From an uncultured bacterium (lineage in GTDB: Bacteria > UBA8481), in contig CAZWVM010000001.1 in NCBI GenBank assembly GCA_964637705.1, positions 29,985 to 93,984 on the forward strand: DNA of 64,000 nt. Reading direction: 5' to 3'. The position numbers and the translations under genes were made by a program. The stretch's first letter is position 1. Each line of letters opens with the position of its first letter. Below, in pieces: positions 39,887 through 55,149 of the stretch. Under the pieces are notes generated by a model, which worked only from the letters and a program-made list of their open reading frames with translations, was not told the DNA's origin and ran no database searches.

Positions 39887-40834
39887 TCACGGGATCCGCG
39901 TCCACAGGGGATCGAGCGCCGGCAGGGAACCCGAGGCCCGCATCCGTTCCATCCGCCCCGATGCGTCCGGTTCGAAGGCGAGGAGAATGCACGTCCCCTC
40001 CACCTCGAACGTCCTCTCCCCCGAGGGGAAGAGAAGGGCGCCGTCCGTCGCCCTCAGGAGACCGTCCGAGGCCGTGATCGTCATCTCGTTCCCGGTGCCG
40101 ACGGCGCGGTACGTGCCCGCGAAACGCTCCGCGCCCGCGATCCGCGGCGGGCGCGCATCCAGGGGCGGCAGTTCGAGGAAGGCGCAGATCCTGTCAAGGT
40201 GGCTCGCCCAGTCGCCGGCGTCGGTCTCGATCGCCAGGCACGGCATCTCCAAGCGTTGCGCGAGCGTATCGACGAGATCCTGGTAGCGGCGGAAGTATTC
40301 CTCGAGGCCGGGGAGACCCGTGAGCCCGAGCCGCGCCCCGAGCGGCGAGGCGGCGATGCGCGCGGAGAGGAACGGCGCGAACCACTCTCCCCTCTTCTCG
40401 TAGGTCCGGGGTAGCGCCGTCGCGAGGTCCGCATGGCGCAGGAGAACGAGCCTCGGGTCGCAGGGCCTCACGGTCGCGACGACCCGGTCGACGTACTTCG
40501 AAATCTCGTCGAGGGACCGATCGTTGAAGAAGAAAACGTGGAGCGGCGTCTGGAAGAAGGTACTCTCGAAGAGGGTCGTCGCGGTCGCGCCCGGTCCATT
40601 CACGTGGCGCGACCAATTCTCGAGAGCCAGCGCATGAAGCGCCGGGTCGAGCGGTCCGCCGTTGAGCACATCGACGACGCGCGCATGCTCGATGACCGGG
40701 TGCGGCGTCTCGTGCTCGTAGACCCAGCGGGCATCGCGCCCCAGCGAGCGAAGATGGCGGCAGAGGCGATGGGCGGTCGCGGACTTGCCCGTGCCGGGAA
40801 TCCCGTCGATGAAGATGAGCCGCGACGTGGTCAT
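39887..40834 (-). CDS. P-loop NTPase, nucleoside/nucleotide-kinase-like (315 aa), embedded between PKS genes
   Basis: Walker A LIFIDGIPGTGKSATAHRL at the N-terminus; ESTFFQTP and LLRHADLATALPRTYEKRGEWF resemble deoxynucleoside-kinase ERS/lid motifs. ATG at 40834 overlaps the FAAL-PKS stop (ATGA). There is a ~120 aa C-terminal extension with no recognisable motif. Confidence 0.7.
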   Translation of the reverse strand: MTTSRLIFIDGIPGTGKSATAHRLCRHLRSLGRDARWVYEHETPHPVIEHARVVDVLNGGPLDPALHALALENWSRHVNGPGATATTLFESTFFQTPLHVFFFNDRSLDEISKYVDRVVATVRPCDPRLVLLRHADLATALPRTYEKRGEWFAPFLSARIAASPLGARLGLTGLPGLEEYFRRYQDLVDTLAQRLEMPCLAIETDAGDWASHLDRICAFLELPPLDARPPRIAGAERFAGTYRAVGTGNEMTITASDGLLRATDGALLFPSGERTFEVEGTCILLAFEPDASGRMERMRASGSLPALDPLWTRIP

Positions 40835-43800
40835 TCGATCCCCACCAGGCTCTCCAGCCGGCGCAGGCTCTCCTCGAAGCCGTCGCCCCCGGCACGGGCC
40901 GAGGCGGCCGACGGCGCCGCGGCGCGCGGCGCGGGCCGGTCCACCGGGGCTGATGGCGCGATCGCGCCCACGAGATGATCCGCGAGCGCGTTGACGTTCG
41001 GGTAGTTGAAGACGGCAGTCGCGGGAAGGGAACGGCCCATCCCCTTCTCGAGGCGGCGCTTGAACTGCATGGCCGTGATCGAGTCCATGCCCATCGCGAA
41101 GAATCCCGCGTCCCGGTCGAGGTTCTCCGCATCGAGGCGCAGGACATCGGCCAGCGCGGCGGCGAGGTGACGCGCCAGCCGCTCGCGGGCCGCTCCGGGA
41201 TCGAGACCCTCAAGCGCATCCACGAAGGTCGCGCGCGGCGCCGCAGGCGCTATGGGCGCCGCAGGCGCTATGGGCGCCGCGGCCGTAGTCGCGACCGGCT
41301 GAGAACCCAGCCGGCTGAAGAGCGGACGCGAACGACGCGCCTCGTGCACCCCGCGGTAGGTGGCCCAGTCGATCCGCGCCGCGACGATGCGCGGCAGGCG
41401 CGATCCGGCTCGCCGCAGCACCACTTCGACCGCTTCGTCGACGGTCCAGAAAGCCAACCCCATCCGCTCGAGGTTCCCGGCGCCGCCCTCGTGGAGCATG
41501 CCGGCGCCGGAGACCGGGCCGAGCCCGATCGAGACGGTCGGCGCGCCGGCGGCCGAGCGACGAGCCGCGAAGAGGTCGAGGAAGTGGTTCGTCGCGACGT
41601 AGTGCGCCTGCTCCGCCGCGCCCCACGCGGCGACCATCGAAGAGAGGCAGGCGAAGAAATCGAGTGTCCGGCCGCGGGCGAGGCGGTCGAGGTTGAGGGC
41701 GCCGCGCGCCTTGGCGGCGAGAAGCGGTTCCAGGTCCTCGGCCGTCAAGCCGTCGATCCGCCGCTTCCGGCCCGATCCGGCGGCATGGATGATACCGCGG
41801 AGCGGCGGCAAGCCGTCCAGCGCCTGCTCCAGCGTCGCGACGATCGCCGTGTCGCCCACGTCCGCGGCCCGCACCGCGACGCGCGCGCCCAGCGCCTCGA
41901 TCGCCTCCACCGCCGCGCGACGTTCCGCCGTGGCGGCCCCGGTGCGACCGACGAGGAGGAGCTGACTCGCGCCCCGCCGGGCGAGACCGCGCGCCAGCCC
42001 GAGCCCCAGGCCGCCGAGGCCGCCCGTGACGAGGTAGGTCGCATCGCGGCGGATCGCGACCGGACGCGTATCCGGAACGCCCGGCTCGATCCGAGCCCCG
42101 TGCCGCGCGCCGGCGCGATACGCGATCTCCTCCTCGTCATCCCCCGAGCCGAGCTCGGCGATGATCTCGTTCGCACCGGCCTCGGCATCGAGGTCTACGA
42201 GCCGGACGACGACATCGGGATGCTCGAGAGGTATGTTGCGCCCGAGACCCCAGAGCCAGGACTGGCTCAAACCCGCGACGCGGTCGTCCGGCCGAACCTG
42301 CTGGGCATCGCGGGTCACGATGAGGAGCCGTGCGCCGTCCGGTCGTCCGGTCATTGCCTTCGCGAGTCCGGCCACGCGGAGGAAATCCTCTCCGCAAGGT
42401 TCAGGATCCCCGCCGCGATCCGGCGCGAGGAGGATCGCCGCAGTCGCATCCGCCGCCCTCGACTCGTCGAGGACGATCCCGCCGCGCGCCTCGATGAGCG
42501 CCGCGAGTTCGTTGCGCAGGGCTTCGCCCGCACCCGAGATCAGGCACGCTCCGGGAGCACGTTCCGGCCGCGATGCCGCCACCGCGGGCCACGCGACCGA
42601 AGAAAGGTTGTCGGAGGCTTCGTGCGGGCGGGGAACGGCAGCCGGTCCCTCGCCCCGTATCCAGTAGCGCCTCCGCTGGAACGGGTAGGTCGGCAGGGCG
42701 ATGCGTCGTCCGCCGCTCGCGCGGAGCAAGGCCGCATCGTCGATCGCGATGCCTCCGGCGAAGAGCGCGCCGAGCGCCAGGCGGATCTGCCGCGCCGCCG
42801 GTCGCTCGCGGTCGAGTGAGGCCGCCCGGCAGCGCCCCGTCCGCCCCACGTTCTCCTCGGCGATCCCGAGGAGCGTCGGGTGAGGTCCGATCTCGAGGAA
42901 GACCCGGTGACCGGCGCCGTCGAGCGCGCGCAGGTTCTCGCCGAAGCGCACCGTCTCGCGGAAGTGACGCACCCAGTACCCGGCCGTCGTCACCTCGTCG
43001 CCCGCCGCGCCCCCGCTCACGTTCGACATCAGGGGGATCCTCGGCCTCGAGAACCGGACGCCTCCCGCGAAGCGTTCGAACGCGGCCAGGATCGGTTCGA
43101 CGAGCGGCGAGTGGGCCGCGACCGGGATCTCGAGCCTCGTGCACTTGAGGCCGCGCGCCGCGAGCTTCGCGATCGCGGACTCGAGCGCGGCGCGCCGGCC
43201 CGAGAGGATCGTGTTGACCGGCGAGTTCGAGACCGCGACGGCGAGGTCCTCACCCTCCGGTATCGCCTCCCGGACCACCGCCTCGTCCGCCATGACCGCG
43301 GCCATGGCACCGTCGGGCGGCAGCGTCTGCATCAGGCGGCCGCGCTCGGCGACGAGCGCCAATCCGTCTTCGAAGGTCATCACGCCGGCCGCGCAGGCCG
43401 CCGCGTACTCGCCGGCGCTGTGCCCCGCGACGGCCGCGGGCCGCACGCCCCAGGAGCCCCAGAGCTCGGTCAGCGCGTACTGGAGGGCGAAGAGCGCGGG
43501 CTGGGACCAGTCCATGCGCTTCAGGCGATCGGTATCGCGATAGAGCGCGTCGCAGAGCGAGGCGTCGAGGAGCGGCCGCAGGATCGCGTCGCACCGGTCG
43601 ATCGTGCGGCGGAACACGGGCTCGCGCTCGTAAAGGTCGGCACCCATCCCCGGGTAGATCGAACCGTGGCCTGTGTAGAGGAAGACGACGCCGGGATCGC
43701 CCGGGAGAACCTCTCCCGTGACCAGCCCCTCGTGCTCCTCGCCCCGTGCCGCCGCCTCGAGCGCCGCCGCCATCGAGGCCGCGTTCTCCGCGACGACACC

Positions 43801-46800
43801 CAGGCGCTTCGGGCAACGCGAGCGGCCGAGGCTCGAGGTGACGGCGAGATCCGTGAGCGGGATCTTCGGGCGCTCGGCGAGGAACGCGGCGTAGCGGGCC
43901 GCGAGTTCCCGCAGGGCGGGTTCGGTACGAGCCGAGAGCCACAGGTGATTCCAGGTCGTGCCGTCTCGCCTCTCGTCCCGGTCCTCGCCCGGTCCTCCCT
44001 CCACGATGGCATGTGCGTTCGTGCCCCCGAAGCCGAACGAACTGACGCCCGCCAGTCGCTCACCCTCCCACGGCCGGCGCTCCGACGCGATCGTGAACGC
44101 CGTCCCCGCGATCGGGAGGCGCGGATTCATCGACGTGTAATGCAGTTGCCGGGGAATCTCGGCATGGCCGAGCATCAGGACGACCTTGATGAGACCCGCG
44201 ATCCCGGCCGCGCTCTCGAGGTGACCGATGTTCGCCTTCACCGACCCGATGATGCAGGGAGCCCCGTCCCGTCCCTCGCCGAGCGCCTCCCGGATCGCCC
44301 CGACCTCGATGGGGTCGCCGAGAGCCGTGCCCGTGCCGTGTGCCTCGACATAGCCGATCGCGCCCGGTTCGACCCCTGCGTCGCGGAGTGCGCGGCGGAT
44401 CACGTCCACCTGGGCCGGCCCGTTCGGCGCGGTCAGGCCGTTCGAACGGCCGTCCTGGTTCACGGCCGTGCCGCGAATGACGGCGAGGACGCGGTCCCCG
44501 TCGCGCCGGGCGTCCGCGAGGCGCTTCAGCACCACGATGCCGCACCCCTCGGACCTCACGTACCCGTCGGCCTTCGCGTCGAAGGCCTTGCACCGGCCGT
44601 CCGGCGCCATGAGGCCCGCCTTCGAGAAGGAGATGGTGTACTCGGGCGAGAGGACGAGGTTCACCCCGCCGGAGAGAACCAGGTCGCATTCGCCGCCGCG
44701 CAGGGCCCGAACGCCCTGGTGGAGAGCCACGAGCGAGGAGGAGCAGGCCGTGTCGACCGCGACGCTCGGTCCACGCAGGTCGAGGAAATAGGAGAGGCGG
44801 TTGGCGGTGACGGAGAGCGCGGTGCCGGTCCCGGCATAGATGTCCGTCCCGCCGTTGGACGCCAGCAGCATCCGGGCGTAGTCGAAGTTGCTCACGCCGA
44901 CGAAGACCCCGGTGTTCGTGCCGGCCAGGCCGTCGGCCGCCACGCCCGCGTCCTCCAGCGCCTCCCAGCTCACCTCCAGGAGCAGGCGTTGCTGCGGGTC
45001 CAGGCTCTCCGCCTCGCGCGGCGATAGCCCGAAGAAGTCGGCGTCGAAGTCGCCGACGCCGTCGAGAAAGCCGCCCCATTTCGTCGTCGTCTTACCCGTC
45101 GCGTCCGGGTCGGGATCGTAGAGCGCCGCCGCATCCCACCGGTCCGCCGGCACCTCGCGGACCGCGTCCACGCCGTCGCGCAGGAGGTTCCAGAACGATT
45201 CCGCGTCCGGCGCGCCGGGGAAGCGGCAGGCCAGGCCGATGACCGCGACCGGTTCGCGGTCGCCTGGATCCGTCGGTTTCGCTGAGGCACGGCGCGCTGC
45301 GCCCCCGCGCGTCTCTCCGCCCAGGAACGAGACGAGCGCCGAGACGGTCGGGTGGTCGTAGAGAAGGGTCGGCGGCAGATCGCGGCCGAGCATCGCGGCC
45401 ATTTCGCCCGAGACCTGGACCGCGCCGGCGGAGTCGAGGCCGTAGGAAGCGAAGGAGGCCCGGGGATCGATCGAGGAGGCGGGAATACCGAAGCGCCGCG
45501 CCAGGATCCCGAGGAGTTTCGTCCGGATGTCGTCGCCCGAGGCGGTCTCCCCCGCCCCGGCCGGCCCCGGCTCACGCCTGACCGCCACCGCCTCGAGCGT
45601 TCCGTCGAGGAACGCCTTCCGGCAGGCGCCGCGCATCACCTTGCCGCTCGAGGTCTTGGGCAGGGCGTTGGGCTTCAACAGGACGACGGCGTGCACGGGC
45701 ACGCCGTGTTCCTCGACGATTCTCTCGCGCAGGCGCCCCAGGACCTCGTCGGCGTCGATCCTGCGGAGCCAGGTCCGCTCGACTTCCTGGACGACGACGA
45801 TCCGTTCCCCCTCCCCGGTCTCGATCGCGAAGGCCGCGGCGCCGGAGGCGCGCAGGGCGGGGTGAGCCGTCTCCGAGGTCAGTTCCAGGTCCTGCGGGTA
45901 ATGGTTGAGACCGTTGACGATGATCATGTCCTTGATCCGGCCCGTCACGAAGAGCTCGCCGCCGTGCAGGAATCCCAGGTCGCCGGTGCGCAGCATCGGC
46001 CCCTCGCCGGAACCGGCGATCCGGCCGTCGAACACGTCCCGAGTCTCTCCGGGCCTGTTCCAGTAGCCGCCGGCCACGATCCGGCCCCCGACCCAGATCT
46101 CTCCGACCCGATCCTCCGGGCACGCATCGCACGACTCCGGTTCCACGATCCGGACCGTCGTCTCGGAGACCGGCACTCCGCAGCCCACGATCGGCACCGC
46201 GCCGGGTGCATGCTCAGCGATGGCCCGGACCCGGTGTCGCGCCAATTCCTCCGCGTCCACGTAGAGGACCGTGGCCGCCCGGTCCGCGGGATTCGTCGTC
46301 ACCTTCAGCGTCGATTCGGCGAGACCGAAGCCCGGGGTGAGAACGTTGCGCCCCAGGCCGCACGGCGCAAAGGCCTCGTGGAAACGGTCGAGCGTCTCGG
46401 CGCGCACCGTCTCCGCCGCGTTCAGGGCGACGCGCCAGCTCGAGAGATCGAGCCCGGCCTTCTGCTCGCCGGTGATCTTCTTCGCGCAGAGATCGTAGGC
46501 GAAGTTCGGCGCGGCCGCGTGGGTGCCGCGGTAGCGCGAGATCGCGGCCAACCACCGGCGAGGTCTCTGCAGGAAGGCCGCGGGCGGCATCATGACGCAG
46601 GTGAAGCCCATGAGGAGCGGCTGCAGGAGACCGTAGATCAGCCCCATGTCATGGAAGAGCGGCAGCCAGGTCACCATGACGCTTCCGGGCGCATGTCCCC
46701 AGTTCGCGTCCATGTCGCGGACGTTGTCGAGGATGTGCCGGTGCGTGACCATGACCCCGCGCGGCGCCGAGGTCGAGCCCGAGGTGTATTGCAGGAGCGC

Positions 46801-47280
46801 GAGCGTCTCCGGCCCGATCGCGGGCCGCTGCCACGCGGGGATCTCCTCCCCGCCCTCGGCATCGGTCGCGATCCAGTCGAGCGCACCGAGTTCCGGGTAG
46901 TGCGCGACCTGGGTGTCACGCGCCGCCATCACCCGTGTCGTGGTCAGGACCCGGCGCGCGCCGGCGTCGGAAGCGATGACCGGGAGCCGTCGGTCCGGCC
47001 GGAGACGGCCGGGCGGATAGCATGGGACCGGCACGACGCCGGCGTAGAGGCAGCCGCAGTAGGCGGTGACGAACTCGAGGCCCGAGGGATACAGGAGCAG
47101 GGCCCGGTCTCCCGTCATGCCCCCGGTCGCCAGGCGGGCCGCCAGGACCCGAGCCCGGTGATCCAGGTCACGGAAGGTCAGCCGGCCCGCTTCGGTCTCT
47201 CCGTCCTCCAGGAAGATGCAAGCCGTTCCGCCCGGGTCGGTTTCCGCCCGGCGCGCAAGGACCTCGACAACGGTTCTCAC
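40831..47280 (-). CDS. Loading/first-extension megasynthase, 2149 aa: FAAL-ACP-KS-AT-KR-ACP-Cdock
   Basis: ORF track 40831..47280; start codon is GTG. FAAL: LTFRDLDHRARVLAARL, LQYTSGSTSAPRGVMVTH, ILPKRGRGL-free long insertion region, GDLGFLHGGELFVTGR. ACP: YGLDSAGAVQV. KS: VIGLACRFPG...CSSSLVALH. AT: GHSAGEYAAACAAGV, VAAHSPL. KR: TYLVTGGLGGLGLGLARGL. ACP: FFAMGMDSITAM. C-terminal LRRLESLVGIE. Confidence 0.9.
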   Translation of the reverse strand: MRTVVEVLARRAETDPGGTACIFLEDGETEAGRLTFRDLDHRARVLAARLATGGMTGDRALLLYPSGLEFVTAYCGCLYAGVVPVPCYPPGRLRPDRRLPVIASDAGARRVLTTTRVMAARDTQVAHYPELGALDWIATDAEGGEEIPAWQRPAIGPETLALLQYTSGSTSAPRGVMVTHRHILDNVRDMDANWGHAPGSVMVTWLPLFHDMGLIYGLLQPLLMGFTCVMMPPAAFLQRPRRWLAAISRYRGTHAAAPNFAYDLCAKKITGEQKAGLDLSSWRVALNAAETVRAETLDRFHEAFAPCGLGRNVLTPGFGLAESTLKVTTNPADRAATVLYVDAEELARHRVRAIAEHAPGAVPIVGCGVPVSETTVRIVEPESCDACPEDRVGEIWVGGRIVAGGYWNRPGETRDVFDGRIAGSGEGPMLRTGDLGFLHGGELFVTGRIKDMIIVNGLNHYPQDLELTSETAHPALRASGAAAFAIETGEGERIVVVQEVERTWLRRIDADEVLGRLRERIVEEHGVPVHAVVLLKPNALPKTSSGKVMRGACRKAFLDGTLEAVAVRREPGPAGAGETASGDDIRTKLLGILARRFGIPASSIDPRASFASYGLDSAGAVQVSGEMAAMLGRDLPPTLLYDHPTVSALVSFLGGETRGGAARRASAKPTDPGDREPVAVIGLACRFPGAPDAESFWNLLRDGVDAVREVPADRWDAAALYDPDPDATGKTTTKWGGFLDGVGDFDADFFGLSPREAESLDPQQRLLLEVSWEALEDAGVAADGLAGTNTGVFVGVSNFDYARMLLASNGGTDIYAGTGTALSVTANRLSYFLDLRGPSVAVDTACSSSLVALHQGVRALRGGECDLVLSGGVNLVLSPEYTISFSKAGLMAPDGRCKAFDAKADGYVRSEGCGIVVLKRLADARRDGDRVLAVIRGTAVNQDGRSNGLTAPNGPAQVDVIRRALRDAGVEPGAIGYVEAHGTGTALGDPIEVGAIREALGEGRDGAPCIIGSVKANIGHLESAAGIAGLIKVVLMLGHAEIPRQLHYTSMNPRLPIAGTAFTIASERRPWEGERLAGVSSFGFGGTNAHAIVEGGPGEDRDERRDGTTWNHLWLSARTEPALRELAARYAAFLAERPKIPLTDLAVTSSLGRSRCPKRLGVVAENAASMAAALEAAARGEEHEGLVTGEVLPGDPGVVFLYTGHGSIYPGMGADLYEREPVFRRTIDRCDAILRPLLDASLCDALYRDTDRLKRMDWSQPALFALQYALTELWGSWGVRPAAVAGHSAGEYAAACAAGVMTFEDGLALVAERGRLMQTLPPDGAMAAVMADEAVVREAIPEGEDLAVAVSNSPVNTILSGRRAALESAIAKLAARGLKCTRLEIPVAAHSPLVEPILAAFERFAGGVRFSRPRIPLMSNVSGGAAGDEVTTAGYWVRHFRETVRFGENLRALDGAGHRVFLEIGPHPTLLGIAEENVGRTGRCRAASLDRERPAARQIRLALGALFAGGIAIDDAALLRASGGRRIALPTYPFQRRRYWIRGEGPAAVPRPHEASDNLSSVAWPAVAASRPERAPGACLISGAGEALRNELAALIEARGGIVLDESRAADATAAILLAPDRGGDPEPCGEDFLRVAGLAKAMTGRPDGARLLIVTRDAQQVRPDDRVAGLSQSWLWGLGRNIPLEHPDVVVRLVDLDAEAGANEIIAELGSGDDEEEIAYRAGARHGARIEPGVPDTRPVAIRRDATYLVTGGLGGLGLGLARGLARRGASQLLLVGRTGAATAERRAAVEAIEALGARVAVRAADVGDTAIVATLEQALDGLPPLRGIIHAAGSGRKRRIDGLTAEDLEPLLAAKARGALNLDRLARGRTLDFFACLSSMVAAWGAAEQAHYVATNHFLDLFAARRSAAGAPTVSIGLGPVSGAGMLHEGGAGNLERMGLAFWTVDEAVEVVLRRAGSRLPRIVAARIDWATYRGVHEARRSRPLFSRLGSQPVATTAAAPIAPAAPIAPAAPRATFVDALEGLDPGAARERLARHLAAALADVLRLDAENLDRDAGFFAMGMDSITAMQFKRRLEKGMGRSLPATAVFNYPNVNALADHLVGAIAPSAPVDRPAPRAAAPSAASARAGGDGFEESLRRLESLVGIE
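41235..41292 (-). repeat. 18-bp x 3 tandem repeat encoding (IAPAAP)2-TTAAAP linker before the C-terminal ACP of the loading gene
   Basis: ggcgccgcaggcgctatg x2 plus a degenerate third copy. Confidence 0.7.
45510..47280 (-). other. Fatty acyl-AMP ligase (FAAL) starter domain
   Basis: N-terminal ~590 aa of the loading gene, with adenylate-forming cores and a downstream ACP instead of a CoA-ligase context. This architecture is established for lipopeptide/lipoketide initiation. Confidence 0.75.
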
Positions 47281-47634: not shown

Positions 47635-48174
47635 CTAGATTTCCGGCAGTTTCGCGGCTTCCTTGCCCTTCTTCTGCTCCTGCATGTGGCTGGCGACCTT
47701 CTGTCCTTCCTCGAACTGGTCGATGAAGTACTGGTGCATCCGGGCCGGGTCGAAATCCAGGAGCGTGCCGCCCGTCTCGAAGTGCATGATGAAGACCTTG
47801 CCCACGGCATACGTCGTGGCTCCGGCGAAGATCGGCATCGAGACGGCCCCGATGAAGGTGCCGACGACGGGCACGAGCTTCAGGAGGCTCCCGATCGCCC
47901 CTTGAGCGATCGTGGTCGCCACGAGGCTACCGATGAGAGAAGCGATGATGGCCTTGCCCCGGTTCTCGGAATACTTGATGTCGTAGTGACCGGCGATCTC
48001 CTCGACCAGTTTCAACTGCACCGCGGTGACGGCGAGGATATCCGCGAAAGGATAGGGAATGAGCCCCGCACCCATGGCCCACCACATGTAATTCCGAGTC
48101 GCCTGCTTCGCCCGCGTTTCGCGGGAAAGCTCGGCGGCAGGATCCTTTTCCGGGTTGTCGTTCGTGCTCGTCAT
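47635..48174 (-). CDS. DUF697/YcjF-like small protein, paralogue 1 (179 aa)
   Basis: ORF track. Core YMWWAMGAGLIPYPFADILAVTAVQ...TYAVGKVFIMHFETGGTLLDFDP is shared with the two other paralogues. AGGAGA sits 5-10 nt upstream of the ATG. Confidence 0.7.
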   Translation of the reverse strand: MTSTNDNPEKDPAAELSRETRAKQATRNYMWWAMGAGLIPYPFADILAVTAVQLKLVEEIAGHYDIKYSENRGKAIIASLIGSLVATTIAQGAIGSLLKLVPVVGTFIGAVSMPIFAGATTYAVGKVFIMHFETGGTLLDFDPARMHQYFIDQFEEGQKVASHMQEQKKGKEAAKLPEI

Positions 48175-48240: not shown

Positions 48241-48269
48241 TTGACTCCCTCGAGGCCCGGGCGTACATT
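48241..48269 (+). promoter_or_regulatory. Candidate sigma70-type promoter TTGACT-N17-TACATT for the DUF697-small TM-secretin operon
   Basis: Read directly in the divergent 48175-48347 gap, ~80 nt upstream of the GGAGG-preceded ATG at 48348. Confidence 0.3.
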
Positions 48270-48347
48270 TTCCCCGTTCGAGGTCGATTTCCCATGGAGT
48301 TTCGCGATGGAGATTGGCCGAGCCTCAAAGACCCCCGGAGGTGCGTG

Positions 48348-48845
48348 ATGACAGAAACGGCGACAGTGGTGGAATCGAAGGACGCCAAGGCGAAGGAAAT
48401 CGTCAAGAACTACATGTATTGGACCATGGGAGCGGGGCTGATTCCCTATCCGTTGGTCGATCTTGCGGCCGTCATCGGAATCCAGATCAAGATGACCAAG
48501 GATTTGGCCGAACTGTATGAGGTTCCCTTCCGTGAGAACGCCGTGAAGTCGATCGTCGGATCGCTCCTGGGCGGCGTCACGTCCTCCTCCATCGCTTTCG
48601 GCAGCATCGGCCTGCTCGCGGCGAGCCTCGTGAAGATGGTTCCCTTCATCGGGACGGCCCCCGGTCTCGTCACCGTGCCCCTGATCTCCGGCGCCGTGAC
48701 CTACGCCGTGGGCAAGGTCTTCATCATGCACTTCGACACGGGTGGCACGCTCCTGGACTTCGACCCGGTGAAGGTCCGCGAGTATTTCCGCGAGTCCCTC
48801 AAGGAAGGCGAGAAACTGGCCAAGGAGATGAAGAGCTCCAAGTAG
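48348..48845 (+). CDS. DUF697/YcjF-like small protein, paralogue 2 (~165 aa)
   Basis: ORF track frame 48294..48845; start moved to the internal ATG at 48348 (MTETATVVESKD), preceded by GGAGG and matching the N-termini of the paralogues. Core NYMYWTMGAGLIPYPLVDLAAV...TYAVGKVFIMHFDTGGTLLDFDP. Confidence 0.7.
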   Translation: MTETATVVESKDAKAKEIVKNYMYWTMGAGLIPYPLVDLAAVIGIQIKMTKDLAELYEVPFRENAVKSIVGSLLGGVTSSSIAFGSIGLLAASLVKMVPFIGTAPGLVTVPLISGAVTYAVGKVFIMHFDTGGTLLDFDPVKVREYFRESLKEGEKLAKEMKSSK

Positions 48846-48941
48846 GCGTCAAGCGGGGCCATGCGGGCCTTTCGTGTCTTCCCTCGCGGAAGAGACGGAC
48901 GCCGCATGGCCCCGGTCGTTTAGGGAGGCAGGAGCGGACCC

Positions 48942-49127
48942 ATGATCAACGTCGTCGTCCCTACGCTCTACGTGGCACTGAGCCTCATGGTCGGGCTCCT
49001 GGGCAGGAAGAAGCTCCTCGGGTTCTGGGGATTCTTCCTGGGCTCCCTCATCCTGACTCCGGTCATGGGTTTTCTCGGCTTGATCTTCTTCGAAATGATC
49101 TCCCTCGTGGGAGAATCGAAAAACTGA
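48942..49127 (+). CDS. Small hydrophobic two-TM membrane protein (61 aa)
   Basis: ORF track. GGAGG/AGGAG RBS 7-17 nt upstream; GC3-rich codons; two predicted TM helices (VVPTLYVALSLMVGLLG; LGSLILTPVMGFLGLIFF). Confidence 0.5.
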   Translation: MINVVVPTLYVALSLMVGLLGRKKLLGFWGFFLGSLILTPVMGFLGLIFFEMISLVGESKN

Positions 49128-49173
49128 CGCGTTCCGGCCGCCGCGCGCGGACGCGATCCAAGGAGCGATTGCG

Positions 49174-50388
49174 ATGACGACGAGACTGATCGACGGGCTG
49201 AATCGCGCCGGCGCGTTCCGGCGCGGACTCGGGACCTGCCTGCTCGGGGCGCTCCTTCTCCTGGCCGGTTCCACGAGCACGACGGCCCAGGCCCAGGAAT
49301 CTCCCGCCCGCTATCGCACGGTCGTGTATTACCTCGAGAACGCCGACGCCGCCAAGCTCGTCACCGTCCTCAACGCCGTCTACAGCCCCGGCAGCGGCGG
49401 AGCCCTCGGGCTCGGAAACCAAGGCGTCTCCATCGTCGCCGATGTCGGTACCAATTCCCTCGTCCTGAGCGCGCCCGAGGAGACCATCGACGCGGTCCTG
49501 GAGACGGTCAAGAAGCTCGACATCGCCCCCTTCCAGGTGCTCATCGAATGCATCATCCTGGAAGTGCGGCTCGACGCCGCGAAGAACCTCGGCGTGGACT
49601 GGACCTGGAAGAACTCCAACGTGGACTTCGGCATCCGCGGGAACGCGCCCGGCGTGGGCGTTCTCGAGGCCCTCGCCTTCACGGGTCTCAAGCAGGGCGT
49701 GATCGGCGACCAGCGCACGCTCCAGGGGGTCATCCAGGCTCTCGTCCGCGACAATCGCACCCGCATCGTGGCCACGCCGCGCATCTTCGCGGCGAACAAC
49801 CGGGAGGCCTCGATCACGATCGGCGACAACGTCCCCGTTCTCTTGAACCAGGCCACGACCGTGGGCGGCGTGACGCAGAACACCTTCAGCTACACCGATC
49901 TCGGGATCAAGCTGGTCGTGACGCCCCACATCAACCGGCGGCGCCAGACCGTGCTCGAGGTCTTCCAGGAGATCAAGTCCTTCTACGACATGAACAACCT
50001 CCCCACGGGCGTCAACGTCCAGAACGCGAACCCCATCATCTCCACGCGCAACAGCCGCACCGTGGTCACACTCGGGGACAGCGAATCGGTCGTCATCGGC
50101 GGCCTCATCCGGACCGACCGGACGAGGTTGGAGAGCCGCGTGCCGGTCCTGGGAGATATCCCGATCATCGGCGCGGCCTTTCGTTCCAAGCAGTATCGCG
50201 AAGAGAAGACGGAACTGCTCGTCTTCCTCACCACGCGCGTCGTCACGAACGGCGACGAACTGCGATCCATGGTGAGCGAGCAGGTCGACGACTCCATCTA
50301 CATGGAACAGAGGGCCCAGGACTTCTTCAGCGACACGCACTCGATCCGGAACGGCGCGGGATTCGTGGAGAGTCACATCCTCAGGTAG
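49174..50388 (+). CDS. Secretin (GspD/PilQ/CpaC/pIV superfamily), 404 aa with signal peptide
   Basis: ORF track. N-terminal signal peptide. C-terminal secretin signature SVVIGGLIRTDRTRLESRVPVLGDIPIIGAAFRSKQYREEKTELLVFLTTRVV. Confidence 0.85.
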   Translation: MTTRLIDGLNRAGAFRRGLGTCLLGALLLLAGSTSTTAQAQESPARYRTVVYYLENADAAKLVTVLNAVYSPGSGGALGLGNQGVSIVADVGTNSLVLSAPEETIDAVLETVKKLDIAPFQVLIECIILEVRLDAAKNLGVDWTWKNSNVDFGIRGNAPGVGVLEALAFTGLKQGVIGDQRTLQGVIQALVRDNRTRIVATPRIFAANNREASITIGDNVPVLLNQATTVGGVTQNTFSYTDLGIKLVVTPHINRRRQTVLEVFQEIKSFYDMNNLPTGVNVQNANPIISTRNSRTVVTLGDSESVVIGGLIRTDRTRLESRVPVLGDIPIIGAAFRSKQYREEKTELLVFLTTRVVTNGDELRSMVSEQVDDSIYMEQRAQDFFSDTHSIRNGAGFVESHILR

Positions 50389-50425: not shown

Positions 50426-51586
50426 TCAGTGGATCTCGGGGTAGATGAACTTTCCGTCCCGGAGAACCTTGAAGAAGACGTGCTCGTCCACGAGGTCCCC
50501 GTTCTCGTCGAAGTCGATCGGGCCCGTCACGCCCTCCGCGGAATAGTTCACCCGGAGTGTGTCCTGCACCGTGACCGGGACCGTGCTCCGGCAGCGATTC
50601 ATGGCCCCCGCCAGCGTCATGACGGCGTCGTAGCCGCGCGCCGCGCGCACGTCCGGGACTTCGCCGTAACGCGCGATGAACTTCTCGTGGAAATCCAGGG
50701 CCGCCGGGCGAATCTCCCGGGGCGAGTAGTTCGTCGCGATCATCGTGCCGTTCGACGCCACCCCCGCCTCGTTCCAGAGGTCGAGCGTGTCCAGCGCGCT
50801 TTTGCCGATGAACGGCGCCGTGATTCCCATCTCCCGGGCCTGGCGCATGAGGAGCGCCGCGGCCGTGGCCGGGCTCTGCAGGAGGATCACGTCGTAGGTG
50901 ACGTCGGACAGCTTGGACAGGAGCGTCCGGAAGTTGGTCTCCTCGGGGTTGAAATGCTGGACCGAGACGATGTCCATGGCCTGCGACTCCCGCGACAGCT
51001 GATACTGGATGGTCGTGGCGAAGGAATTGCCGTCGACATCGTCGGTGTGGATGATCACCGCGCGGCGGATGGGCTTGTATCCGCGGTAGAGTCTCAGGCC
51101 GGCGATCGCCCTGCTGTAATCCTCGTCGCTGGGCAGGAGACGGAAAACGTTTTTGAAGCCGTGCAGGGTGAGATAGGGATCCGTGGCGCCCGTCGACAGG
51201 AACGTGATGCCGCTCTGCTCGTAGATGATCGAGGCGGGCAGGGCCACCTCGGAACTGCGATGGCCGATCACCGCGACCAGGTCCGGATCGGCCGCGAAAC
51301 GCCGGGCGACCCGGCGTCCCTCTTCAGCGGTCACGCCCTCGTCCTCGACCCGGATCACCATGGGCCGGCCCATCACGCCGCCCTTCGCGTTCACCTCGTC
51401 CAGCGCCAGCTGGACCCCCTCGAGAAACCTGTGGGACGGACTGGCCGCGAACGACCAGGCCACGCCCACGACGACATCACCCTTGGAGAAGTAGGCCCGG
51501 ACGGCTCGGTCGTAGGCCGCGTCGTTCCCGCCGCAGGCGGCCAGGAGGACGGCGGCCGCCAGGGCGGCGCCGAGACGCCGGAACAC
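50426..51586 (-). CDS. Periplasmic binding protein type 1 lipoprotein (Leu/Ile/Val-binding, LivJ-like), 386 aa
   Basis: ORF track. Lipobox LLAACGG. PBP1 fold features: alternating beta-alpha pattern and typical Liv-family length. Confidence 0.75.
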   Translation of the reverse strand: MFRRLGAALAAAVLLAACGGNDAAYDRAVRAYFSKGDVVVGVAWSFAASPSHRFLEGVQLALDEVNAKGGVMGRPMVIRVEDEGVTAEEGRRVARRFAADPDLVAVIGHRSSEVALPASIIYEQSGITFLSTGATDPYLTLHGFKNVFRLLPSDEDYSRAIAGLRLYRGYKPIRRAVIIHTDDVDGNSFATTIQYQLSRESQAMDIVSVQHFNPEETNFRTLLSKLSDVTYDVILLQSPATAAALLMRQAREMGITAPFIGKSALDTLDLWNEAGVASNGTMIATNYSPREIRPAALDFHEKFIARYGEVPDVRAARGYDAVMTLAGAMNRCRSTVPVTVQDTLRVNYSAEGVTGPIDFDENGDLVDEHVFFKVLRDGKFIYPEIH

Positions 51587-51593
51587 GCGCGGC

Positions 51594-52565
51594 CTACGGT
51601 TCCGGATTCAGGATGACGGGGAGACCGCCCCGGCCCGATCCGATGACGATGACCTTCGAGTTGGTGCAGGTGGCCAGGTCCCGGGTCGCACGGATGCCTT
51701 CCCACCGCAGGAGGTTCTCGCCGAGCGAGGCCGTCACGGTGCGGTTGTATTGCTCGATCCCGCGCGCCTCGATGGCCTTGCGTTCCGCCTCCCGCTGCTC
51801 GCGGTTGAGCCGGAAGTCGTATTCGAGCATCAACTGCTCCTGCGTCAACTTCGCCTCGATCGCCGACGTCAGGTTCTGCGGCAGCGTGATCCGGCGGACC
51901 ACCACGTTGTCGAGCGTGATGAAGTTCTTTCCCACCGCCGTGAAGGCGCCGACCACCAGCCGCTCCAGCACGCCGCCCTGCGTCGTGAAGAGCTCCTCGG
52001 GCGTGAAGCGCCCGATGACGTTGCGGATCACCGCCTCCACTTCCGGCAGGACGATCACGTTGAGGTAGTCGGGACCGATGCGCTGGTGCAGCACCGGCAG
52101 GAACTGATACTCCGGCTGGTAGCGGATCGAGAGGCTGATCTGGACCGGGAGCCCGTTCACCGTCAGGGCCGTCATCTCGTGGCTGACCGTCTGCTTCCGG
52201 ATGTTGTATACGAAGAACTTGTTGAAGGGATTGATCAGGTGCGTCCCTTCCGGGTAGACCCGGTCCAGGATCGTGCCCCCCTGGAAGCGGCTCCACTCGA
52301 CCCCCGCCTCGCCCGCGTGGACGGTCACCACGAAGAAGGGCCAGAAGAAGAGGACGAAGAGCGTCAGGAGCATCATCCAGATGTAGAAGGAGATCCGGTT
52401 CCGGCGGTAGTAGTCCTTCCCCCACCGGGTCACGGGATTGTCGCGCAGGTGGCCATAGGCGATCCCCAGGCCCCGGGCCGTGGCACGGACCGCGTTCACG
52501 AGATGCGCCCAGGCCCGCGAAAGCGCGCCGGGGACCGCGTCAACAGGTTCCATGCTGGACGACAC
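51594..52565 (-). CDS. SPFH/band-7 (prohibitin/HflK/C-like) membrane protein, 323 aa
   Basis: ORF track. One N-terminal TM (ISFYIWMMLLTLFVLFFWPFFVV), then an SPFH domain and coiled coil EAKLTQEQLMLEYDFRLNREQREAERKAIEARGIE. Confidence 0.8.
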   Translation of the reverse strand: MSSSMEPVDAVPGALSRAWAHLVNAVRATARGLGIAYGHLRDNPVTRWGKDYYRRNRISFYIWMMLLTLFVLFFWPFFVVTVHAGEAGVEWSRFQGGTILDRVYPEGTHLINPFNKFFVYNIRKQTVSHEMTALTVNGLPVQISLSIRYQPEYQFLPVLHQRIGPDYLNVIVLPEVEAVIRNVIGRFTPEELFTTQGGVLERLVVGAFTAVGKNFITLDNVVVRRITLPQNLTSAIEAKLTQEQLMLEYDFRLNREQREAERKAIEARGIEQYNRTVTASLGENLLRWEGIRATRDLATCTNSKVIVIGSGRGGLPVILNPEP

Positions 52566-53316
52566 CTCCCATCGCGGCCCGGGAACAGGTTGCGGCCGGG
52601 CGGGCGGGATCGCACCCCAAGGCCGCGTTCACGAGTCCGGCGAGTTCCTGGACATGATCATTGATGAAGAAATGCCCGCCGTCAAACTCCTTGATCGTCA
52701 CCGGCTCCGTGCTCGCCTCCTGCCACCGCCGGGCCTCCTCGCGGGTCACGTCGTCTCGCCGCCCGATCCAGGCCGAGAGGGGCACGGGCAGGGCCGCGAT
52801 GACCGGCGCCGGTTCGTAGGTGTCGGCCGCCTCGAAATCCGCGCGCAGGATGGGCAGGAAGAGTTCCATCAGTTCCTCGTTCCCGAGGATCTCCTCCGCG
52901 CTGCCGCCCATCGCGCGCAACTCGGCGATCAGGCGGTCCTGCGACATGAGGTGGCGGGGTTCCCCGGTGCGCTTCACGCCCGGGCCGCCGCGGCCCGAGA
53001 CGAACAGGTGCTGCGGGCGCGGTGCGCCGGCCTCGACGGCGCGTAGCGCCAGGAGGTAGGCCAGCAGCGCTCCGAGGCTGTGGCCGAAGACGGCCCAGCG
53101 TTCCGGCCAGCGCCCTTCCATCTGGGCGGCCAGGTCGCATGTCATCGCGTGGACATCGTCGAGAAGCGGCTCGGCCATGCGCCGACCGTGGCCCGGCAGT
53201 TCCAGGGCGATCGGTTCGACGAACGGCGCGAGGTGCGAACAGAGCGCGCGGTAGCCGTAGGCGTTTCCGCCGGAATACGGAAGGCAGACGAGCGCCACCC
53301 GATCCCCGGAGGTCAC
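52540..53316 (-). CDS. Type II thioesterase (alpha/beta hydrolase, GHSLG), ~258 aa
   Basis: C-terminal part of ORF 52540..53790: ALVCLPYSGGNAYGYRAL...WAVFGHSLGALLAYLLA...EFDGGHFF. The first 156 codons of the track ORF overlap the DUF697 gene and are junk. Proposed GTG start is 2 nt after the DUF697 TGA. Confidence 0.8.
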   Translation of the reverse strand: MTSGDRVALVCLPYSGGNAYGYRALCSHLAPFVEPIALELPGHGRRMAEPLLDDVHAMTCDLAAQMEGRWPERWAVFGHSLGALLAYLLALRAVEAGAPRPQHLFVSGRGGPGVKRTGEPRHLMSQDRLIAELRAMGGSAEEILGNEELMELFLPILRADFEAADTYEPAPVIAALPVPLSAWIGRRDDVTREEARRWQEASTEPVTIKEFDGGHFFINDHVQELAGLVNAALGCDPARPAATCSRAAMGGVVQHGTC

Positions 53317-53318
53317 GA

Positions 53319-54005
53319 TCAGGCCCTGCCCGGGGCCTCGGCGCGCGCACCGCGCGCGGGAGAAACCCGGCCGCCCACGCGGAACTCCGCCTCGTAATGC
53401 TCCTTCATCTTCTCGGGGCGGAACGTCAGGAGCGTGCCTCCCGACTCGAAATGCTGGATGAAGACGCGACCGACGGCGTAGGTCGAGGCGGCCGCGACGC
53501 CGGACACGGCGGCCGCACCCGTCAGGTAACCGAGGATCGGGATGGCCTTGAGAATCGAGGCCTTGGCGACGGGCATCCCTCCCACGACGCTCGCGATCAG
53601 GGACTTGCCCAGGTCCCGGCTGAACGGGACACCGTAGAGGAAGGTGAGGCGGCGGAGCATGAGCAGTTGAAGGGCGGAGACCGCGACGAAATCGAGCGCG
53701 ACGGCCGGTATGAGCGCCCCGGCGCCCGCCGACCAGCACATGTACCGCTTGACGATGTCCTCGGCGCGACGCACCCGCTCCGCCTCCCACGCGCGACCCG
53801 CCGTCACCTCGCTCGTCGCGGAGGGAACCGGCAGCCTTCGCTCCGACCGTTCGACGGGCGCCGCGACGGATCGCGCCTTCCGCGCGGGCCGCACGATCTC
53901 GGGCTCGAGCGGAATCGGCGATTCATCGCTCCCGGGGAGCTGGTAGAGGCGTGTCCGTTCCCGCTTCACCTTGCGGCGCGCGGACGGGACACCGGTCTCA
54001 GTCAT
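53319..54005 (-). CDS. DUF697/YcjF-like small protein, paralogue 3 (228 aa, N-terminally extended)
   Basis: ORF track. Core RYMCWSAGAGALIPAVALDFVAV...TYAVGRVFIQHFESGGTLLTF. The start overlaps the ParA-like stop by 8 nt (ATGACTGA). Confidence 0.7.
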   Translation of the reverse strand: MTETGVPSARRKVKRERTRLYQLPGSDESPIPLEPEIVRPARKARSVAAPVERSERRLPVPSATSEVTAGRAWEAERVRRAEDIVKRYMCWSAGAGALIPAVALDFVAVSALQLLMLRRLTFLYGVPFSRDLGKSLIASVVGGMPVAKASILKAIPILGYLTGAAAVSGVAAASTYAVGRVFIQHFESGGTLLTFRPEKMKEHYEAEFRVGGRVSPARGARAEAPGRA

Positions 54006-55149
54006 AGCTCATCTCCTCGTCCGATCTCCTCCGCGGCTTCACGCGGGGCTCCGCCTCCTCGTCGCCGGCGGGCGAAGCCGCCTCGAAGGAGGAAAGCCCG
54101 GTCGCGATGTCGCGTGCCGGTTCGGGCGGCTTCTCCCGGACCCGGGCCGGCTCCGGGGCGCGCACCGGAACCTCCTTGACGAGTTCCGGCGCCGCCTCGA
54201 GGAGAGGATCAAGCCCCAGCGCCAGGCGGACGTAACCGTCGTAATCCTCCTTGGCGCGGCTGCGGCCGGGCGCGGAGAAGATGGTGCGCCCTCCGTCCAG
54301 CGCCCTCACGTATTCCGCGCTCGTGCGGATCACCTCGGGCAGGAGCTGCCCGGGATAATCCCGCTTCAGGCGCTCGAGGGCCTCGATCGAGGTCTTCTCG
54401 CGGCGGTCATAGCGCGAGTAGAGGATCTTCACGGCCGGCGGATCCACGTGGAAGGTGTCGCAGATCGACGCGATCTCGCGCATCGTCAGCTCGATGCCCT
54501 TGAATGAGAAGGCGTCGGCGCCCGTGGGGATCGTCACCGCGTCGGCGGCGCAGATGGTGGAGATGACGGCCGCGCCGAGCGACGGCGGGCAGTCGATGAC
54601 GACGAGGTCGAAGCCGAGGGCGCGGAGCGCCTCGCAGACGCCCTTCACGGCGTTCTTTTGCGAAACGGGGCTGGCGAGCGCGGAATCGAGGAGCCCGTTC
54701 TGGAGCGAGGACGGGAGGAGCGAGAGGCCGGGAGCGATCTCGCGCAGCGCCGCCGCCGTGTCCGCCTCCGGGTCCTGCCACGTGTCGTAGAAGACCGGGT
54801 CGTCCTCCTCCGCCGTCACGCCCAGGGCGAGGGAGGCCGAGGCCTGGGAATCGAGGTCGAGGAGGCAGGTGCGAAACCCGGCCTGGGCGGCGCGCACGGC
54901 GAGAGCGACCGAGGCCGTGGTCTTGCCGATCCCGCCCCTCATATTCACGTGGGCGATGACGCGGAAGGAGAAATCCGCGCCGCGTTCCTCCAAGAACCCG
55001 CGGACGCGCGCCGAGGATATCGCGCGGGCCTCGGCCGCGCCGGCGCCGAGCGCCCGTGCGGCCAGCGGGGCGGGCATCCTCAGGAATCCGGCCAAGTCAT
55101 GGAGCGTCGGTCCGGACGTCTCCCCTGCCGTGTGCTCGACTTCGTTCAT
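53998..55149 (-). CDS. ParA/MinD-family deviant Walker-A ATPase, ~383 aa
   Basis: ORF track frame 53998..55326. Start trimmed to M60 (MNEVEHT; ATGA overlap with the ABC exporter stop). Motifs NMRGGIGKTTASVALA and VVIDCPPSLG; Pro/Glu-rich C-terminal tail. Confidence 0.8.
   Translation of the reverse strand: MNEVEHTAGETSGPTLHDLAGFLRMPAPLAARALGAGAAEARAISSARVRGFLEERGADFSFRVIAHVNMRGGIGKTTASVALAVRAAQAGFRTCLLDLDSQASASLALGVTAEEDDPVFYDTWQDPEADTAAALREIAPGLSLLPSSLQNGLLDSALASPVSQKNAVKGVCEALRALGFDLVVIDCPPSLGAAVISTICAADAVTIPTGADAFSFKGIELTMREIASICDTFHVDPPAVKILYSRYDRREKTSIEALERLKRDYPGQLLPEVIRTSAEYVRALDGGRTIFSAPGRSRAKEDYDGYVRLALGLDPLLEAAPELVKEVPVRAPEPARVREKPPEPARDIATGLSSFEAASPAGDEEAEPRVKPRRRSDEEMSYD

Follow-up and report, generated by a model that had tools for sequence, protein, structure and literature searches.

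The window analysed here, 64,000 nucleotides at ~70% G+C from an uncultured bacterium of the UBA8481 lineage (assembly GCA_964637705.1, contig CAZWVM010000001.1, positions 29,985 to 93,984), encodes a 404-aa secretin. Its fold is that of an ordinary secretin; what sets it apart is that N3 is its only N domain, that it is an orphan, and that it is fixed in a natural-product cluster beside a previously unnoticed gene module. The core of this module, made up of a DUF697 protein, a small protein with two transmembrane segments (mini-TM), an SPFH protein and an ATP-binding cassette (ABC) exporter of the cyclic-peptide type, is a general companion of non-ribosomal peptide synthetase (NRPS) and polyketide synthase (PKS) clusters. 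We tentatively propose, with the chances somewhat against us, that the secretin is a lineage-specific outer membrane (OM) exit added to this NRPS/PKS envelope module. The proposal starts from features that were observed directly: the anatomy of the genes, the lineage and rarity of the secretin, its strict adjacency to DUF697 genes and the association of the module with NRPS/PKS clusters.

To our knowledge, the only cargoes that secretins are known to let out or in are folded proteins, pili, DNA-uptake fibres and filamentous phages, and a dedicated inner-membrane machine always drives them.

A secretin with a single N domain

Domain searches place the 404-aa protein in the secretin superfamily. 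The Pfam Secretin profile (PF00263) matched residues 189-357 with 147.6 bits against a cut-off of 27.5, over profile positions 1-168 of 169, and a single copy of Secretin_N (PF03958, 58.7 bits) was found at residues 49-121; the N0 domain (PF21305) gave no match in the protein, and N1 and N2 are likewise absent. In the AlphaFold2 model, the mean predicted local distance difference test score (pLDDT) is 68.5, with values in the core well over 80. Residues 1-43 are modelled as a disordered signal region, after which come a beta-alpha-beta-beta-alpha N3 domain (47-115), a double-walled secretin domain (121-357) and two S-domain-like C-terminal helices (360-403). The N-terminus is a hydrophobic stretch of about residues 1-40, a putative Sec signal ending AQA/QE, so that the predicted mature protein begins ~5 residues ahead of N3. 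A lipoprotein or self-piloting secretin was also considered and rejected: the cysteine of the signal region is not part of a lipobox, and the orthologues do not conserve it.

When compared with the models of the known secretin families, the protein scored highest against the GspD equivalog TIGR02517 (239 bits, cut-off 351.35), which it matched only at model positions 233-599 of 600; the scores for PilQ (167, cut-off 284), SctC (123, cut-off 238) and MshL (120, cut-off 250) were lower, as was that for HofQ. Because it stays below the cut-offs and has neither the N0 domain nor, in the window, the partner genes of these families, we place it outside GspD, PilQ, SctC, RcpA and pIV. A search of the PDB with a profile built from six orthologues gave GspD first (2e-59), followed by PilQ (1e-33), f1 pIV (9e-25), RcpA (8e-20) and InvG (3e-8), and the gate-forming hairpin aligns without gaps to that of E. 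coli GspD. In a Foldseek search all solved secretins matched in fold; GspD-type entries held ranks 1-9 and pIV came 20th.

Beyond the orthologues, the nearest relatives are ~1000-aa secretins that have TPR, an N0 domain and then four or five N domains; it is with their C-terminal thirds that the short protein aligns, at 50-56% identity from the last N domain (N3) through the secretin domain to the tail. These long proteins come from a 'Candidatus Lindowbacteria' metagenome-assembled genome (MAG) and from other uncultured bacteria (loci L009, L010 and L089); they adjoin GspE-, PilN/M-like and GspF-type genes, and no DUF697 gene was found near them. As judged from these alignments, the secretin is a truncated paralogue of cellular ~1000-aa TPR-N0-Nx secretins of the GspD lineage. 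At L010 (11144-13974, plus strand), genes for an asparagine synthase and a CAAX/Rce1-like protease come after the long secretin, an odd tail for an operon resembling those of type II secretion systems (T2SS) or type IV pili (T4P).

The sequence-only reading had offered, as one origin of the gene, the relic of a filamentous-phage pIV gene. A length of 404 aa and the absence of partner genes are indeed pIV-like, and homology to phage secretins can be detected, at 26-30% identity and no higher in the phage genomes searched. Against this stand the much stronger profile match to GspD, the low rank of pIV in the fold search, the domain content (pIV has N0 and N3) and the absence of Zot/pI, coat or replication genes from the 64 kb. 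Moreover, the nearest relatives are the long cellular secretins, which makes the protein a truncated paralogue and not a pIV relic, and the ratio of non-synonymous to synonymous substitution rates (dN/dS) of 0.23 speaks against a gene in decay. We regard a phage origin as effectively refuted. The same reading had reported no cognate machinery or phage genes nearby, and this holds: no T2SS, T4P, Tad, type III secretion system or phage family was found in any scanned open reading frame (ORF) of the window, and tblastn with GspE and GspF of related loci gave no match there.

A profile search also returned, outside the window, more than 100 giant secretins (P0241-P0388) of roughly 900-5,500 aa, most of them above 2,000 aa, in which tandem Secretin_N-like arrays (~5-45 matched stretches each) precede a single C-terminal secretin domain. 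The protein P0241 has 45 such stretches in 5,532 aa, and lengths of this order would exceed the normal span of the periplasm by far.

Rarity of the secretin and its adjacency to DUF697 genes

The short secretin is rare. A word-indexed search of 5.8 billion protein clusters yielded six orthologues (373-429 aa, 56-100% identity), after which the E-values leap from 1e-125 to 1e-57. With HMMER over 1.84 billion representatives at 50% identity, the clade is a single representative, and in 185,579 species genomes and the JGI metagenomes no further short secretin was found, only the long relatives.

In the window the secretin gene is preceded by a DUF697 gene (DUF697-2, the second of three paralogues) and by the gene of a 61-aa mini-TM protein (Table 1). 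The sequence-only reading had described these three genes as co-oriented and closely spaced, with which the ORFs, the Pfam matches and the dN/dS values agree. The gaps measure 96 nt (DUF697-2 to the 61-aa gene) and 46 nt (61-aa gene to secretin), and each gene has a ribosome-binding site of its own; that of DUF697-2 is a GGAGG 6 nt before the ATG, and an in-frame ATG upstream, at 48294, has no comparable site. Against the orthologues of L001, dN/dS is 0.12 in DUF697-2 and 0.13 in the 61-aa gene and reaches 0.23 in the secretin, which shows that all three are coding and under purifying selection; for the distant pairs (L004, L006) such values are unreliable because synonymous sites are saturated.

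The same three genes had also been called an operon, a word that needs a qualification. The first gap holds a GC-rich stem-loop of -53.2 kcal/mol (z = -3.64), a stability reached in none of 200 shuffles, and in three of the five orthologous loci, L004 and L006 among them, the pair of DUF697 and mini-TM genes is divergent from the secretin. Adjacency of secretin and DUF697 is conserved; co-transcription is not. The stem-loop may be an attenuator within the operon, an element of mRNA stability or a setter of the expression ratio of the genes; in L001, the corresponding gap contains a perfect 10-bp GC stem that is not related to it. The sigma-70-like promoter match upstream is a consensus match only (one found, 0.5 expected).

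A DUF697 gene adjoins the secretin in all five independent orthologous contexts with readable flanks. When the three DUF697 paralogues of the window were used in tblastn against 160 ordinary secretin loci (1.9 Mb), no DUF697 was found, and the adjacency is therefore specific. It has outlasted inversions, relocation of a phosphopantetheinyl transferase (PPTase) gene, insertion of an outer-membrane protein (OMP) gene and divergence of the secretin to 56% identity, in genomes of 57-70% GC.

These observations bear on a second explanation, that the protein is an auxiliary secretin of a T2SS, T4P or Tad machine whose genes lie in another part of the genome and that its place in the cluster is inherited gene order within a narrow lineage. 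Its clear GspD lineage and the canonical machines served by its close long paralogues fit this explanation; so does the small number of orthologues, since conserved synteny among six samples limited diversity, and the search for machinery covered the 64-kb window only. On the other side, N0-N2, the link to inner-membrane platforms, are missing, the adjacency to DUF697 was kept through all the rearrangements listed above, and DUF697 does not occur in the 160 canonical loci. We consider an auxiliary role for a distant machine quite improbable.

More than the adjacency recurs. In the orthologous loci, at 56-75% secretin identity, a cassette is found again that comprises three DUF697 genes, mini-TM, secretin, a periplasmic binding protein (PBP), SPFH, a type II thioesterase (TE-II), a ParA-like protein, the cyclic-peptide ABC exporter, a PPTase and a Cache-cyclase (Tables 1 and 2). 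A FAAL-PKS accompanies the cassette in L004 and L006, and thioesterase (TE), PPTase and ABC genes accompany it in L001. Past the SPFH gene, L006 continues with TE, DUF697, ParA, ABC and cyclase, and the contig of L004 stops within the SPFH gene.

In L004 (9192-9971) and L006 (9234-9974), both on the plus strand, a gene for a 246-259-aa OMP beta-barrel ends 26-29 nt upstream of the secretin. The two copies are 70% identical to each other and end in an aromatic residue, and that of L006 matches OMP_b-brl with 31 bits; neither the window nor L001 has this gene. Its product could be an assembly partner or a co-channel.

A DUF697 module in NRPS/PKS clusters

DUF697-2 was modelled as six helices (pLDDT 85, predicted TM-score 0.80), with a Gly/Ser/Ala-rich, moderately hydrophobic central hairpin, charged termini and no signal peptide; its fold found no counterpart in the PDB (best E = 0.6). 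The protein is probably embedded in the inner membrane with both termini in the cytoplasm, a topology that makes direct contact with the secretin unlikely. The mini-TM protein, which has no Pfam, NCBIfam or PADLOC match, is conserved in at least nine other loci: it aligns at 40-69% identity over six loci, which share the motif G-x2-G-R/K-K-x3-GFWGFF in the loop and TM2, and tblastn matches it in L172, L176 and L178. Outside the secretin loci, the nearest homologues of DUF697-2 (39-56% identity) are small, stand-alone proteins of diverse organisms with 34-70% GC. A role of DUF697 as a secretin-specific partner was rejected, as close homologues are widespread without secretins. The sequence-only reading had taken DUF697-2 and the 61-aa protein for partners of the secretin; instead, both belong to an inner-membrane module associated with biosynthetic clusters, to which the secretin is a rare add-on.

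Ten independent contexts of small DUF697 proteins were sampled blind to their content, by size of the sequence stretch or by presence in a plasmid collection. Eight have a clear NRPS/PKS link, one a probable link, and one (L180) has no megasynthase within 12 kb; this sole exception is a second locus in Azospirillum brasilense, with the order DUF697-ABC-SPFH-ABC (Table 2). Four of the contexts, L176-L179, come from cultured Alphaproteobacteria, in which DUF697, a ~65-aa two-TM protein, prohibitin/SPFH, the cyclic-peptide ABC exporter and an alpha/beta hydrolase make up one string next to NRPS/PKS genes. The recurrent core consists of DUF697, a ~60-70-aa two-TM protein, SPFH, a cyclic-peptide-type ABC exporter and a TE-II, often together with a ParA-like ATPase, an orphan binding protein and Cache sensors. 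The module as we define it here, which is not a curated family, is complete in the window and is found in part or in full in L001, L004, L006, L170, L172 and L176-L179. The searchable literature on DUF697, DUF481 and secretins with non-ribosomal peptides holds nothing on an association of DUF697 with NRPS/PKS. A paper on didemnin maturation and secretion (PMC10811503) mentions neither prohibitin, DUF, ABC transporter nor outer membrane, and as it is silent on these terms the Tistrella locus is not tied to a known product; the searchable literature is also silent on pTM3.

Table 1. Features of the window, with the three co-oriented genes first
Feature	Position	Strand	Basis
DUF697-2 (DUF697 paralogue 2), 165 aa	48348-48845	+	Pfam PF05128, 37.4 bits (cut-off 27.7)
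Mini-TM protein, 61 aa, two TM segments	48942-49127	+	Two hydrophobic segments (hydropathy)
Minimal secretin, 404 aa	49174-50388	+	Pfam Secretin, Secretin_N; NCBIfam; AlphaFold2 model
Sigma-70-like promoter match, TTGACT-17-TACATT	48241-48269	+	Inside the 173-bp divergent region between DUF697-1 and DUF697-2
GC-rich stem-loop	48855-48913	+	Between DUF697-2 and the 61-aa gene; no T-run
Hybrid PKS/NRPS assembly line, ~45 kb	2685-47280	-	ORFs, Pfam domain counts
DUF697-1 (paralogue 1)	47635-48174	-	Pfam PF05128, 52.1 bits (cut-off 27.7)
LivK-type PBP	50426-51586	-	Peripla_BP_6, 129 bits; lipoprotein signal LAAC
SPFH/Band 7 (prohibitin-type) protein	51594-52565	-	Pfam Band_7, 80.4 bits
TE-II	52540-53316	-	Pfam Thioesterase, 129 bits
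DUF697-3 (paralogue 3)	53319-54005	-	Pfam PF05128, 50.9 bits (cut-off 27.7); orthologues in L001, L006
ParA/MinD-type P-loop ATPase	53998-55149	-	AAA_31, 103 bits; CbiA
Cyclic-peptide export ABC transporter, fused permease-ATPase	55146-56804	-	TIGR01194, 353.6 (cut-off 286.2), full length
dCache_1 membrane sensor	56988-59114	-	~400-aa C-terminal half without Pfam match
Sfp/HetI-type PPTase	59168-59908 (start approximate)	-	Pfam ACPS, AASDHPPT_N
Cache-sensor adenylate/guanylate cyclase	60032-62212	+	Guanylate_cyc, 86 bits; dCache_1

Table 2. Loci with secretin orthologues (L001-L008) and the ten sampled contexts of small DUF697 proteins (L169-L180)
Locus	Source	Secretin identity	Genes
L001-L003		74%	Cassette of the window, order kept; MltA, not PKS, beyond DUF697-1
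L004, L006		61-64%	FAAL-PKS, DUF697, PPTase, mini-TM, DUF697, 246-259-aa OMP, secretin, PBP, SPFH
L007, L008	7-8.5 kb contigs	56-59%	DUF697 directly beside secretin
L169	Metagenome		DUF697, AT, DUF481, NRPS
L170	Metagenome		DUF697, 71-aa mini-TM, DUF481, DUF697, PKS
L171	Metagenome		DUF697, DUF481-like, NRPS
L172/L173	Metagenome		RND pump, DUF697, mini-TM, Band 7, ABC, trans-AT PKS
L174/L175	Metagenome		NRPS-TE, DUF697, DUF481, ParA-like, Cache, Peripla_BP_6
L176	Tistrella mobilis pTM3, about 654.7-685.1 kb		FAAL/NRPS, DUF697, mini-TM, cyclic-peptide-type ABC, SPFH, TE, PPTase
L177	Skermanella sp. TT6 pTT6-2		NRPS, MbtH, prohibitin, cyclic-peptide ABC, hydrolase, DUF697, FhaC-like OMP
L178	A. 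brasilense p2, D3869_RS24250-24295		NRPS, TauD, ABC, cyclic-peptide ABC, hydrolase, DUF697, 65-aa protein, prohibitin, Cache protein
L179	Rhodobacteraceae SC52 pSC52_2		PKS-like genes, ABC, prohibitin, DUF697
L180	A. brasilense Sp7 plasmid p1, 16.8-41.3 kb		DUF697, ABC, SPFH, ABC

The OM gene beside DUF697 varies from locus to locus: there is none, a DUF481 barrel (L169, L170, L174/L175), an OMP_b-brl barrel directly upstream of the secretin (L004, L006), an FhaC-like protein (L177) or the short secretin. No homology was found among these variants, including the OMP of L004/L006 and DUF481.

In the window itself, the biosynthetic genes form a hybrid assembly line that starts with FAAL-ACP-KS-AT-KR-ACP (40831-47280). 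A PKS module comes next, then NRPS modules in which a PKS module is embedded, three C-A-T modules that include a methyltransferase, and a KS-AT-KR-DH-ER-ACP module. Orthologues of the FAAL-PKS, 46-47% identical, adjoin the secretin in L004 and L006. DUF697-1, whose orthologues are 84% identical in L001 and 41-66% identical in L004, L006 and L008, heads the direction in which the megasynthase is transcribed and shares its divergent region with the secretin operon. A 315-aa ORF (39887-40834, minus strand), which separates the FAAL-PKS gene from the PKS gene after it, has as its only match a marginal AAA_16 (E = 5e-4). At the far end of the assembly line, two plus-strand ORFs of 628 aa (196-2082) and 244 aa (2095-2829) have no Pfam or NCBIfam match; they may be spurious in the high-GC sequence or novel tailoring genes.

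On the other side of the secretin, the genes from ABC exporter through ParA, DUF697-3, TE-II and SPFH to PBP are one close-packed or overlapping minus-strand string. The ATG of ParA overlaps the stop codon of the ABC gene (ATGA, 55146-55149) and ParA overlaps DUF697-3 by 8 nt (53998-54005), which suggests translational coupling of the P-loop ATPase with the DUF697 protein. The ATPase stays under all NCBIfam cut-offs and is a ParA/AAA_31 match rather than a TadZ/CpaE equivalog; L001 and L006 encode orthologues, and L174 too has a ParA-like gene. Orthologues or homologues of the ABC exporter are found in L001, L006, L172 and L176-L180, and SPFH homologues lie beside DUF697 in L172 and L176-L180. 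The SPFH protein has one N-terminal TM segment (about residues 65-80) with an Arg/Lys cluster ahead of it, and by the positive-inside rule its SPFH domain would be periplasmic, as in HflK/C. The TE-II is conserved in L001 and L006, and alpha/beta hydrolases hold the corresponding position in L176-L178.

The PBP gene is convergent with the secretin across a 37-nt gap and is an orphan without permease genes; its orthologues come after the secretin in L001, L004 and L006, and in L174 a PBP directly follows a Cache gene. Its role could be that of a carrier in the periplasm or of a second sensor alongside the Cache proteins. Full-length homologues of the dCache_1 protein (27-29% identity) stand beside DUF697 in L008 and L174, making it a recurrent component, and orthologues of the Cache-cyclase mark the matching cassette edge in L001 and L006. 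The PPTase scores 150.9 bits with the NCBIfam HetI-like model, under its cut-off. An anti-phage defence system was also considered for this region and rejected, PADLOC having given only two marginal matches (E = 6e-4 and 1.2e-3).

A third explanation accepts the secretin as part of the module and denies that it carries the metabolite. The module would then serve self-protection or membrane organisation against a membrane-active product, and the secretin would release a protein, vent periplasmic material or vesicles, or act with the orphan PBP in the uptake of a signal or precursor. SPFH, ParA-like and DUF697 proteins resemble components of membrane scaffolding or stress responses more than transport components, the module occurs without an OM gene in Azospirillum, in Tistrella and on the Rhodobacteraceae plasmid, the gate region of the secretin appears intact, and the conserved neighbours include an orphan lipoprotein PBP and two Cache sensors. 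Yet no candidate protein cargo is conserved beside the secretin and there are no uptake permease genes; the occurrence of varied, unrelated OM proteins at this position by a cyclic-peptide exporter is more simply explained by the exit of a product. A secretin with such a non-carrier task seems to us unlikely, less so than a pIV relic or an auxiliary secretin.

Possible role of the secretin and comparison with known systems

The sequence-only reading had proposed the secretin as a possible outer-membrane exit of the cluster's product. The recurring cassette, the general NRPS/PKS module and the unrelated OM proteins that take the place of the secretin elsewhere favour this proposal through synteny. 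On this proposal, the 404-aa protein would be a functional secretin that has kept its central gate. In the sequence of events that we envisage, (i) the ABC exporter would carry the FAAL-primed polyketide-peptide through the inner membrane, (ii) DUF697, mini-TM and SPFH, with the ParA-like ATPase, would organise or protect that patch of inner membrane, and (iii) the secretin would provide the passage across the outer membrane. In other lineages, the last step may fall to a DUF481 barrel, a small OMP barrel, an FhaC-like barrel or no dedicated protein, and the truncated secretin would have been recruited in one rare lineage as the OM component of a module found in many phyla. Having lost N0-N2, it cannot dock to an inner-membrane platform of the GspC/PilP type. 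From the gene neighbourhood we infer the cargo, the direction of transport, the opening of the gate and any physical contact between secretin and module.

Several points weigh against an OM exit for the product. The functional argument is drawn wholly from gene neighbourhood, and the search for a T2SS or T4P that lacks its own secretin had the 64-kb window as its scope. Most DUF697 modules, including all those of cultured alphaproteobacteria, have no secretin and several have no adjacent OM gene, so that an OM channel is not essential to the module; L007 and L008, on their short contigs, show DUF697 and secretin without visible NRPS/PKS genes. Since the gate hairpin aligns gap-free to that of GspD, the channel is probably closed at rest, and among the window genes there is no pseudopilus, pilus or phage filament that could push it open. 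A secretin channel is also far wider than a molecule of ~1-2 kDa requires, no periplasmic adaptor (membrane fusion protein) bridges the ABC exporter and the outer membrane, and we know of no secretin for which a small-molecule cargo has been demonstrated.

A more elaborate version, which we consider very unlikely, and a shade less probable than an auxiliary secretin, joins the secretin and the inner-membrane module into a new secretin-based trans-envelope system for a small natural product. The SPFH protein would form a periplasmic cage, of the kind known from HflK/C, that covers the cyclic-peptide ABC exporter and is anchored by DUF697, mini-TM and the ParA-like ATPase, and the N3 ring of the minimal secretin would dock on this cage or be gated by it. 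A membrane-active lipopeptide might in this way pass from the inner to the outer membrane while the membranes of the producer remain untouched; more widely, DUF697/mini-TM/SPFH could be a general export or self-protection device of NRPS/PKS clusters.

If the secretin is the exit for the product, an N3-only secretin tied to a natural-product assembly line and an ABC exporter would extend the cargo of secretins to small molecules, and this may be the first case in which a secretin serves a small molecule and not a protein, pilus or phage; it would then have to be asked by what means a gated secretin is opened when there is no piston. The module has a meaning of its own: DUF697, a ~65-aa two-TM protein and SPFH form a recurrent NRPS/PKS accessory set, from Bacteroidota-like MAGs to Alphaproteobacteria, in which DUF697 (the E. 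coli YcjF family) gains its first consistent functional context. Its presence in A. brasilense and Tistrella mobilis, both cultured and tractable, makes roles in export, self-protection and membrane organisation directly testable, and it offers a practical marker for cluster boundaries and for export engineering in heterologous hosts.

Among known secretins, GspD/PulD of the T2SS (TIGR02517; PDB 5wq7, 5zdh, 6hcg) is the best match in sequence and fold over N3, secretin domain and C-terminal helices, with the gate hairpin and the GGL motif region conserved and a Sec signal peptide (predicted for the 404-aa protein) in common. It differs in possessing N0, N1 and N2 and in the score of the 404-aa protein below its cut-off; in place of gspC-M genes, absent from the window, an NRPS/PKS cluster and DUF697 genes surround the secretin. 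The long 'Candidatus Lindowbacteria'-type secretins are closer relatives still, yet differ in their length and in their GspE/PilN/M/GspF-type operons. Filamentous-phage pIV (PDB 7ofh) is similarly compact, of similar length and without a pseudopilus machine of its own kind, but it retains N0 and works with phage pI/pXI, and the context in the window is not that of a phage.

The inner-membrane components also have counterparts. In E. coli YcjX-YcjF and the GTPase-DUF697 fusions of the slr1306 family, DUF697 is coupled to a P-loop NTPase, as it may be here through the overlap of ParA with DUF697-3, and a weak NCBIfam slr1306 match covers the DUF697 region; in contrast to these, the DUF697 proteins of the window are small (165-228 aa), stand-alone, present as three paralogues and linked to NRPS/PKS genes. 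The SPFH protein resembles HflK/HflC and other SPFH scaffolds in its one N-terminal TM segment and its predicted periplasmic SPFH domain, but it has no FtsH/NfeD partner and is paired with mini-TM, DUF697 and a peptide exporter.

For the export of the product, a parallel lies in Pseudomonas, where non-ribosomal peptides leave the cell through TolC-type OpmQ with PvdRT, or through NodT/OprM-type proteins with MacAB-like lipopeptide exporters. There, as proposed here, the cluster encodes both an exporter and an OM channel; the Pseudomonas channel is a TolC-fold trimer joined by a periplasmic adaptor, whereas the window has a secretin and no adaptor. By analogy, the secretin may work like these cluster-encoded TolC-type exits, with another fold and without the adaptor.

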